Below, in pieces: positions 25,124 to 25,550 of a stretch of 29,459 nt of DNA. The number at the start of each line of letters is the position of its first letter. The first letter of the stretch is position 1. The notes under the pieces are model-generated. The model had not been told where the DNA came from. It searched no databases and saw only the letters and a list, made by a program, of their open reading frames with translations. The stretch comes from a virus, in UHGV virus genome UHGV-0320987; one strand, 5' to 3'. The translations under genes were made by a program, and so were the position numbers.

Positions 25124-25213
25124 ATCAATGACTCCGTACGCAATTAAATTATTACCAATTTAACCACATATGATTTATTTATCGTAGATGGTTGACATTT
25201 AACGCACGAATTA

Positions 25214-25228
25214 TTACCTTTCAGGTAA
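25214..25228. promoter_or_regulatory. Operator-like palindrome TTACCTTTCAGGTAA (copy 5)
   Basis: Perfect copy, identical to 5569-5583, 91 bp upstream of the 68-aa/portal operon start. Confidence 0.6.
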
Positions 25229-25550
25229 GCAGAGAGTTCATTCCGGTTATTAACCTGACTGGCTTGTCGTTAAATTGAACAGGTGGAGTGAGCTTTTATT
25301 TTGAGCAGTACGGCGTATGGCACATGCGCCGATAGCGGTCTGGATACGTTTAAGGGGCACCCTCCCTTGCTCGGGCAAACGAACCAGGTAGCCGGAATGT
25401 GCAAGTCGAGCGGTTTTATTCCGCGCACGTGGATTCACCATCCCGGCGATTCGGTGTGACGCCTCGGAAGAGACGAGGGTACAACGATGAGAGCATTTAT
25501 GGAGCCGCGACAAAGTGTGGCGCCTTAACAGGCTAAGTGCTCTCAGCGTT

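Follow-up and report, generated by a model that had tools for sequence, protein, structure and literature searches.

What is carried by a stretch of some 400 base pairs (bp) that holds no credible gene and ends at a phage tRNA? The question is raised by segment 25144-25550 of the viral genome UHGV-0320987, analysed here as a stretch of 29,459 nucleotides (nt) and referred to below as the window. The window comes from a temperate podophage of the phiV10/epsilon15 type (genus Uetakevirus) and is 98-99% identical to phiV10 and TL-2011b around the segment. A preliminary description regarded the segment as GC-rich (rich in guanine and cytosine) and non-coding, suggested that it might hold the promoter and leader of the tRNA or an unannotated structured RNA, and proposed an Rfam/Infernal scan and a covariation analysis across related phages as checks. 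Comparative analysis of homologous sequences supports the second suggestion, and defines the strand, most helices and the invariant loops of an RNA that has not been described before.

A conserved RNA core with compensatory base changes

The structure was derived from alignment A1, which comprises 36 non-redundant copies (less than 93% identity), and from covariance model R1, which was built from A1. The elements of the RNA, all on the plus strand, are as follows.

25307..25480, plus strand: structured RNA core, 174 nt (alignment A1, model R1)
25311-25315 with 25327-25331, plus strand: P1 hairpin, consensus stem CGGCG/CGYCG, invariant loop UAUGGCACAUG
25320-25325 with 25397-25402, plus strand: pseudoknot PK1, loop GCACAU with AUGUGC of the 19-mer
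25339-25342 with 25385-25388, plus strand: P2, which encloses a variable hairpin
25387-25405, plus strand: invariant 19-mer GGUAGCCGGAAUGUGCAAG
after the invariant 19-mer, plus strand: P3, a variable hairpin
25430-25433 with 25441-25444, plus strand: P4 hairpin, loop UUCACCA (consensus YUCACCA)
25436-25439 with 25453-25456, plus strand: pseudoknot PK2, loop CACC with a downstream GGUG
25462-25466 with 25474-25478, plus strand: P5 hairpin, conserved loop GAAGAGA

The consensus also holds an invariant AGCGGUC between P1 and P2, and the string GGCGAUNCGGUGUGAC between P4 and P5.

Does this structure reflect selection on base pairing? In A1, 98.2% of the cells pair, and ten of the 28 pairs have changed on both sides (74 cells), so that the covariation analysis proposed earlier has returned compensatory changes. 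The observed values of pairing and covariation were reached by none of 500 shuffles, and partners slid by one to three columns pair at only 26-49%. A divergent copy from an independent retrieval (L259) has a P1 of CGCUG/CAGCG, which is a double compensatory change. With the adjoining stem described below, strong covariation spans 25307-25552, as expected if the segment holds a structured RNA. Model R1 scores the copy in the window at 136.5 bits and finds no other there. A nested alternative given by RNAalifold (CG 24-25 with 101-102) is ruled out by the covariation of P1, and the energy of the fold is uninformative by itself (z = -2.75 on the plus strand, -2.36 on the minus strand). The G-U pairs at 7:23, 33:96 and 145:159 would be C-A pairs if the other strand were transcribed; the abundance of such pairs thus places the RNA on the plus strand, the same as the tRNA.

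The two pseudoknots were considered separately. PK2 covaries, CACC/GGUG being replaced by AACC/GGUU in three representatives. PK1 is perfectly complementary but invariant in A1, and a second retrieval that fixed neither of its strands yielded two wobble-compatible variants (L013 and L294), two disruptive single changes (L258 and L276) and no double change. On these comparisons PK1 is plausible but unproven. Mimicry of a tRNA by the UUCACCA loop was considered and set aside, as the loop, judged by eye, does not fit the T-loop consensus.

Could the conserved stretch be a protein-coding gene, either the 87-amino acid open reading frame (ORF) on the minus strand (25250-25513) or a small ORF on the plus strand? 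ORFs of 45-87 amino acids do exist in the window, and public records call hypothetical proteins over the RNA on one strand or the other (mEp460_037, F859_gp36 of mEp390 and UTI89_C5094). Against this, when 40 homologues are compared, every frame of both strands is interrupted within the conserved block, the minima being 3-28 codons, and the 87-amino acid frame of the window is reduced to 9-21 codons in many copies. The insertions and deletions in the variable hairpins are not multiples of three, and the substitutions in the stems are compensatory. A 13-codon leader peptide starting AUG-AGA was tempting, as the tRNA reads AGA, and was rejected since neither its AUG, in AUGAGAGCA, nor its frames are conserved. 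The view that 25124-25550 lacks a credible gene, and that the 87-amino acid ORF is not one, is therefore borne out. A coding function deserves next to no credence, and the three annotated proteins are probably false gene calls.

Has the RNA been described under another name? A scan of the whole window with Rfam 15 (4227 covariance models) at gathering thresholds returned only tRNA, isrK and C4, and a permissive scan of 24900-25900, with E values up to 10, returned nothing inside 25144-25550 on either strand. The Rfam check thus matched no family; taken together with the covariation, this points to an undescribed family rather than to the absence of an RNA. Full-text literature searches (sequence strings, structured prophage RNAs, antiterminator or put-like RNAs, and the ban operon with RNA sequencing) gave no description of the RNA, and the prophage Pas small RNAs, which were considered as candidates, lie in late regions and are unrelated. 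It is almost certain that the RNA represents a real new structured family. Comparison of its copies supports a family that is undescribed, widespread and mobile, without a relative at the level of RNA families.

The composition of the segment can now be understood. GC richness holds for 25307-25550 only (GC 0.57, in the top 1.6% of 244-nt windows); 25144-25306 is AT-rich (GC 0.344), and the segment as a whole, at 0.479, is close to the mean of the window, 0.477. The distinct composition is present, as had been noticed, and arises from two features, the promoter/leader and the structured RNA, not from one GC-rich block.

Distribution and genomic settings

How widespread is the RNA? In a sensitive DNA search, 25310-25550 proved to be about 82% identical to a stretch in the lambda-like phages mEp460, cdtI, 2H10, PhiR40_1 and the Stx2c and Stx2a phages, while 25310-25472 is about 79% identical to P1, P7, D6 and SJ46. 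In Klebsiella phage SopranoGao, Stenotrophomonas phages BUCT708 and BUCT709, and mEp390, the match is limited to a shorter core. Among complete Escherichia coli genomes, about a third (1839 of 5426) contain the RNA; a genome carries at most four copies, and 550 of the places lie on plasmids. Among the matches listed in these genomes, only the flanking tRNA is annotated beneath the element. The exact 19-mer retrieves at least 120 loci from IMG/VR, and a sample of species genomes adds Kosakonia, Phytobacter, Superficieibacter and E. whittamii. A gapped pattern scan of genome contigs was too degenerate to serve as a taxonomic census: six of its 120 returned loci match R1 at E <=0.01, all of them from Enterobacteriaceae.

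Among lambda-like phages, at least 20 distinct lineages have the RNA 100-150 nt past the cI stop codon, just beyond an operator-flanked promoter. The order is cI, the cI terminator, a promoter flanked by operator repeats and, some 40-50 nt further on, the RNA, which would be the first item transcribed from pL. Most lambda-like copies have no tRNA within the locus. In P1-like phages it is part of the C1-controlled ban operon, at a distance of 14 nt from the preceding tRNA-Ile(CAT) and with ban following shortly after; in P1, a dicF-like region and three tRNAs are annotated in the same operon. In epsilon15-like phages it follows 20-80 nt after a promoter overlapped by an operator, in the order operator-promoter, RNA, a long stem (the g-stem), tRNA-Arg, terminators T1 and T2, and a cargo ORF. 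In about half of the loci a tRNA abuts the module: tRNA-Arg follows it, or tRNA-Ile(CAT) precedes it by 14 nt. The module is always co-oriented with its neighbours, and the content downstream varies: tRNA, ban, unrelated hypothetical ORFs, or reverse-oriented morons. In three unrelated phage architectures the RNA would be made first on release of the repressor, which suggests a role in the switch between lysis and lysogeny.

Of 79 loci searched, 78 hold one copy. The exception is L026, where the second copy is a decayed tandem duplicate (3998-4156, minus strand) that follows a reverse-oriented membrane-protein moron and has mutated invariant blocks (AGCGGCC, GGAAGCUGG and GUGUCGAU). Epsilon15 itself (L001, about 3025-3190) keeps only the 5' third of the RNA: a deletion that begins within P2 and extends as far as the 3' half of T1 has removed the remainder along with tRNA-Arg. 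Upstream of this remnant, the epsilon15 record annotates an RNase III site, and a g-like hairpin module is found in the stretch so annotated.

A predicted repressor-controlled promoter ahead of the RNA

How is the RNA expressed? Three features lie between the start of the segment and the core.

25192..25220, plus strand: putative sigma-70 promoter, -35 TTGACA (25192-25197), 17-nt spacer, weak -10 TACCTT (25215-25220)
25213..25229, no strand assigned: repressor operator ATTACCTTTCAGGTAAG, one mismatch from the palindrome ATTACC-N5-GGTAAT, overlapping the -10 element and the likely start site
25230..25306, plus strand: variable AT-rich 5' leader from the promoter to the conserved RNA, GC 0.34

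The promoter was read directly from the sequence; a consensus scan did not call it, the -10 element matching at only three of six positions. The arrangement of TTGACA-17-TACCTT with the operator is also present in epsilon15, SPN9TCW and L025, though their leaders differ, and promoter activity at 25192-25220 is inferred from this conservation. The leader at 25230-25306 is kept in close relatives only: SPN9TCW has about 20 nt in its place, and L025 a different hairpin module. The palindrome ATTACC-N5-GGTAAT occurs at 11 sites in the window against 0.92 expected, a number that none of 100 shuffles reached, and the homologous site in epsilon15 carries a repressor-binding annotation. The operator copy that had been placed at the border of the segment is thus real, as is the tRNA-Arg at 25551-25627 on the other side; the operator lies inside the segment and not at its edge. 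The best explanation of the segment is that it forms the start of an early, repressor-controlled, non-coding transcription unit.

Is the segment then an ordinary promoter and 5' leader for the tRNA, with no function of its own? The presence of such elements is supported, as was suggested at the outset: the predicted promoter, overlapped by its operator, lies about 80 nt upstream of the RNA and is co-oriented and contiguous with tRNA-Arg, with which the RNA directly upstream would be co-transcribed. By contrast, the sequence is not confined to that tRNA, since P1-type copies are found downstream of tRNA-Ile(CAT), and an identity of about 80% with compensatory changes is maintained in many loci that are free of tRNA. 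Bacterial tRNA leaders are usually short and poorly conserved, which also counts against this explanation. Judged from its settings, the RNA is not a tRNA-specific leader but a mobile module: most lambda-like copies are without a tRNA, and in P1 a different tRNA lies on the other side. A plain tRNA leader is thus highly improbable, and can be regarded, together with a protein-coding gene, as effectively excluded.

The g-stem, the tRNA slot and the terminators

What follows the core? Downstream of P5, the transcription unit in the window is predicted to contain the following features.

25481..25552, plus strand: g-stem (minimum free energy fold), ACAACGAUGAGAGCAUU (25481-25497) with AAGUGCUCUCAGCGUUGU (25535-25552) and a variable tip
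25551-25627, plus strand: tRNA-Arg(TCT), found by ARAGORN; Rfam tRNA 73.3 bits
25671..25713, plus strand: intrinsic terminator T1, 14-bp stem GGCGGTGATGG...ATCACCGTC, then CTTTTTTAC
25792..25817, plus strand: intrinsic terminator T2, GCCCGGTTCGTCCGGGC, then a run of T
25823..25851, plus strand: promoter-like ATGACC-17-TATAAT with an operator-like site (25833-25849, two mismatches), just upstream of the cargo ORF
25853..26701, plus strand: cargo ORF from the ORF list, 282 amino acids, AT-rich (GC 0.31-0.39); the true start may be the ATG at 25877

The tRNA-Arg, with anticodon TCT, is co-oriented and contiguous with the RNA, and the final two pairs of the g-stem take up its first two bases. The arms of the g-stem covary fully among homologues (GAGAGCA/UGCUCUC, GAGAGCGCAC/GUGCGCUC, GGAAAAGGCG/CGCCGUUUCC, AAAAGAGCGC/GUGCUCUUUU). 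Many copies carry it 3' of P5, and P1-type copies are without it. In lambda-like copies the tRNA slot is filled by other structured RNAs, closed by GUUGUGGU/ACCACAAC as an acceptor-like stem of 7-8 bp. Two different RNAs of about 110-130 nt with this closing stem are seen in L005 (2741-2875) and, at the same position, in L006; they are followed by AGCCACUGCUUU and T1, and ARAGORN calls neither of them a tRNA.

A terminator of the form GGCGGT..ACCGCC-CTTTTTACA (T1) is found 3' of the module in both epsilon15-like and lambda-like copies, so T1 is part of the mobile cassette. The spacer of about 85 nt between T1 and T2 (25707-25791, CAGGACGCCATTGCGATGAC...GCTGTAAAC...) is conserved among epsilon15-like phages, including epsilon15; Rfam matches there are at chance level only. 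In most epsilon15-like relatives the U-tract of T2 directly meets the AAGGTGA-N5-8-ATG of a swappable cargo ORF. This leaves no room for a promoter, and the ORF would therefore depend on read-through. The junction after T2 was compared in the window and in L001, L002, L003, L012, L025, L061, L074 and L100. An alternative junction has GCCTG(A/G)TGAC 3' of T2. In the window and L084 it carries the promoter-like and operator-like site; L029 and L099 share the GCCTGGTGAC junction and then continue with different sequence. Most relatives have no sequence at this place at all. The cargo ORF of the window is predicted to encode an N-terminal membrane segment and a coiled coil; it matches phrog_4780, a group of unknown function (E 1.9e-115), and has no match in Pfam.

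Might the RNA be a riboswitch-like leader that senses a ligand or a factor and adjusts early transcription to the host's condition? Such a role would suit a pseudoknotted, highly conserved core lying at the 5' ends of early transcripts, and a conformational switch is conceivable in that the P1 loop has two options, an extension of the P1 hairpin or pairing in PK1. Nevertheless, natural variants disrupt the extended P1 hairpin and leave PK1 intact. There is no adjacent expression platform, as P5 lacks a U-tract and T1 comes only past the tRNA, at a distance of more than 190 nt; no terminator or element sequestering a ribosome-binding site is found next to the core, and the downstream genes are mutually unrelated. 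A sensing leader is therefore improbable.

Does the RNA act on the polymerase that transcribes it?

The explanation favoured here, tentatively and by analogy, is cis-acting antitermination by the RNA itself, similar to that of the put RNA of phage HK022. Once the repressor leaves the operator at 25213-25229, host RNA polymerase would initiate at the TTGACA promoter and transcribe in turn a short leader, the pseudoknotted RNA of about 175 nt, the long stem, tRNA-Arg, the two terminators and the cargo ORF. The nascent RNA would act in cis on the transcribing polymerase, its invariant loops binding a conserved part of the elongation complex. A polymerase bound in this way would resist termination, whether intrinsic, Rho-dependent or both, and by reading through T1 and T2 would reach the cargo or early genes downstream. 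The RNA would thus be a functional analogue of put, outside the put family.

There are three reasons to favour this mechanism. The first is that the RNA occupies the slot of nutL or putL in phages where no N gene is found; the second is that terminators separate it from co-oriented genes without promoters. T1, a strong terminator, lies between the RNA and co-oriented genes in those lambda-like copies in which a terminator was detected, about half of them. As for the missing N gene, annotations and ORFs after the RNA in lambda-like carriers include no N-like protein. A tblastn search with the N proteins of lambda, P22 and phi21 found no homologue in 129 viral loci, which is weak evidence given the diversity of N proteins. 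Lambda-like phages that lack N and have unexplained early antitermination were noted in a 2025 paper (PMC12315714), which names 2H10, a carrier of the RNA, only as having the closest late antiterminator Q. The third reason is that the invariant single-stranded blocks are common to phages of Enterobacteriaceae and Stenotrophomonas, which suggests a conserved host partner, for example RNA polymerase.

How close is the resemblance to put? The HK022 put RNA is about 70 nt long and has two stem-loops (PMC9378689). Like put, the new RNA is structured, with highly conserved nucleotides, and has terminators downstream; in lambda-like phages without a visible N gene it lies directly past an early promoter under repressor control. 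The base of stem I of HK022 putL is identical to a 5-bp stem of the new RNA, CGGCG/CGUCG preceded by CAUG; by eye, only CGGCG...CAUGCGUCG is shared. Unlike put, the new RNA measures 150-250 nt, comprises five helices plus one or two pseudoknots, lacks the put core (GGUUCAGGAUGA...CAAUGCUGC), and is also present in P1-like, epsilon15-like and lytic phages. Homology to put is therefore rejected, the 5-bp stem alone being in common and R1 giving no match.

The lambda nut site occupies the same slot after pL, and the purine-rich GAAGAGA loop of P5, on its covarying stem, is reminiscent of the nutL boxB loop, GAAGA. By contrast, the large conserved core has no counterpart in nut. In the early leader of the Stenotrophomonas phage BUCT708 (L007, 2370-2950), the RNA has small hairpins on its flanks, six at the least, each with a GGAAAGAC loop; such a group of similar hairpins is a further likeness to nut, and they could be boxB-like sites or GGA sites of the CsrA/RsmA type. 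A boxA in the g-stem was also considered. The only boxA-like string, UGCUCUUU, is base-paired; the stem that contains it covaries, some variants have other sequence in its place, and the candidate was dropped.

Several observations weigh against antitermination. R1 finds no match at HK022 putL or putR, whether with default filters or with filters off, and each phage has one copy without a pR counterpart, unlike the pair of putL and putR. About half of the lambda-like copies have no detectable intrinsic terminator within 900 nt. The P1 copy is located 2.3 kb into the ban operon, with no terminator found before ban, and in a lytic Klebsiella phage the module is present late; in neither setting are there terminators to overcome. 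Epsilon15 has lost two thirds of the RNA and is nevertheless viable, which indicates that the module is dispensable. T1 travels with the module, as would be expected for the normal end of an RNA gene. Finally, the cargo ORF of the window ends 3 nt from the convergent terminase gene, so that read-through would here produce antisense RNA to terL.

A stable RNA released by processing, or a ribozyme?

Some of these points would be explained more easily if the RNA were a stable, trans-acting 'RNA moron'. The core and g-stem would be excised by enzymes of tRNA processing, with release by RNase P at the 5' end of tRNA-Arg in the window and by 3' processing of tRNA-Ile in P1. The product would bind a conserved host factor and aid takeover of the cell or counter a defence system, T1 and T2 being the normal end of the unit. 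The presence of the module in a lytic phage and in mid-operon in P1, and its dispensability in epsilon15, are consistent with this possibility. So are the joint transfer of core, g-stem, cargo RNA and T1 from one phage to an unrelated one, the tRNA that abuts the module in about half of the loci, the structured RNAs with an acceptor-like closing stem in lambda-like copies, and the tandem terminators on the 3' side, as in stable-RNA operons. The dicF-like region annotated in the P1 ban operon provides a precedent.

Such an RNA has no promoter of its own, however, and is always found behind a promoter controlled by the master repressor. In viable lambda-like phages without N, an efficient T1 would keep transcription from pL out of the early-left genes, and cargo ORFs begin right after T2 without a promoter. 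In addition, this explanation cannot point to a partner or a target. A processed, trans-acting RNA is thus a possible explanation that ranks just behind cis antitermination, and is nearly as likely. Cleavage by itself would not decide between the two. The put RNA still functions once its transcript is cut (PMC9378689), and antitermination in cis would thus be compatible with a cut made by RNase P at the tRNA.

A related proposal is that the RNA is a self-cleaving ribozyme or processing module that frees tRNAs and cargo RNAs from an early polycistronic transcript. Small ribozymes, including those similar to the hepatitis delta virus (HDV) ribozyme, are common beside phage tRNAs, and here too tRNAs are often adjacent. 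The compact, pseudoknotted core with invariant nucleotides in junctions and loops and dispensable variable hairpins would fit a ribozyme, as would its varied genomic contexts with constant orientation. Conversely, no Rfam family of known self-cleaving ribozymes was matched (hammerhead, twister, twister-sister, pistol, hatchet, HDV-like and glmS), and the two successive pseudoknotted domains differ from the nested double pseudoknot of HDV. The RNA, at about 150 nt, is also larger than typical self-cleavers, and no conserved candidate cleavage site can be identified. A ribozyme is therefore unlikely.

Two known RNAs of P1-like phages and prophages offer further comparison. DicF of Qin and the RNA cargo of the P1 ban operon are similar to the new RNA in being non-coding, in lying within a repressor-controlled early operon and in their probable release by processing. 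The difference is that DicF is a short base-pairing small RNA with no sequence relation to the new RNA, which is large and pseudoknotted, has invariant loops, and is more typical of RNAs that bind a protein, a ribonucleoprotein or a ligand. C4 and isrK of P1/P7-type phages are likewise phage regulatory RNAs, with the same immunity system and the same type of operator. They differ in belonging to other Rfam families, in lying at another locus (6833-7018) and in showing no similarity to the new RNA, and C4 is an antisense RNA that controls an antirepressor.

Significance for phage annotation and early gene expression

A large and well-supported structured RNA has thus been invisible to annotation: it has no Rfam family, PGAP leaves its position blank, and several records place spurious ORFs over it. 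Its carriers include the model phages P1, P7 and D6, Stx2-converting phages, and phiV10-like and epsilon15-like phages. A covariance model of the RNA would improve the annotation of phages and prophages and remove false protein calls.

How do lambda-like phages that lack N pass their early terminators? The position of the RNA at nutL/putL in phages showing no N gene makes this question testable. If the RNA is a protein-free antiterminator, it would explain read-through in these phages and in the operons of P1-like and epsilon15-like phages. In broader terms, there is a real prospect, at somewhat less than an even chance, that the RNA founds a new class of phage RNAs that bind a host machine, in the most novel form a second and structurally unrelated family of protein-free RNA antiterminators; alternatively, it would be a new ribozyme, or a decoy RNA produced in the opening seconds of lytic growth. 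In each of these forms it would be an abundant functional RNA without annotation, carried by about one in three of the E. coli genomes sequenced.

Surroundings of the locus in the window

The non-coding unit is placed head-on between the terminase and portal genes. Three neighbouring genes frame it.

23223-24902, minus strand: portal gene
24917-25123, minus strand: gp3-like gene, 68 amino acids
26705-28180, minus strand: terminase large subunit gene (terL)

In ZX5, a full genome of the same type, this plus-strand block stands head-on within one long transcription unit that runs from replication genes through terminase to virion genes, and the annotation of that genome includes no antiterminator of the Q or N type. 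Elsewhere in the window, isrK (6833-6908) and the C4 antisense RNA (6933-7018) match Rfam at gathering score and correspond to the immunity-I module of P1/P7-type phages. Operator sites cluster around this module at 5568, 6688, 6781, 7833 and 7934, and two more are found at 28772 and 28790.

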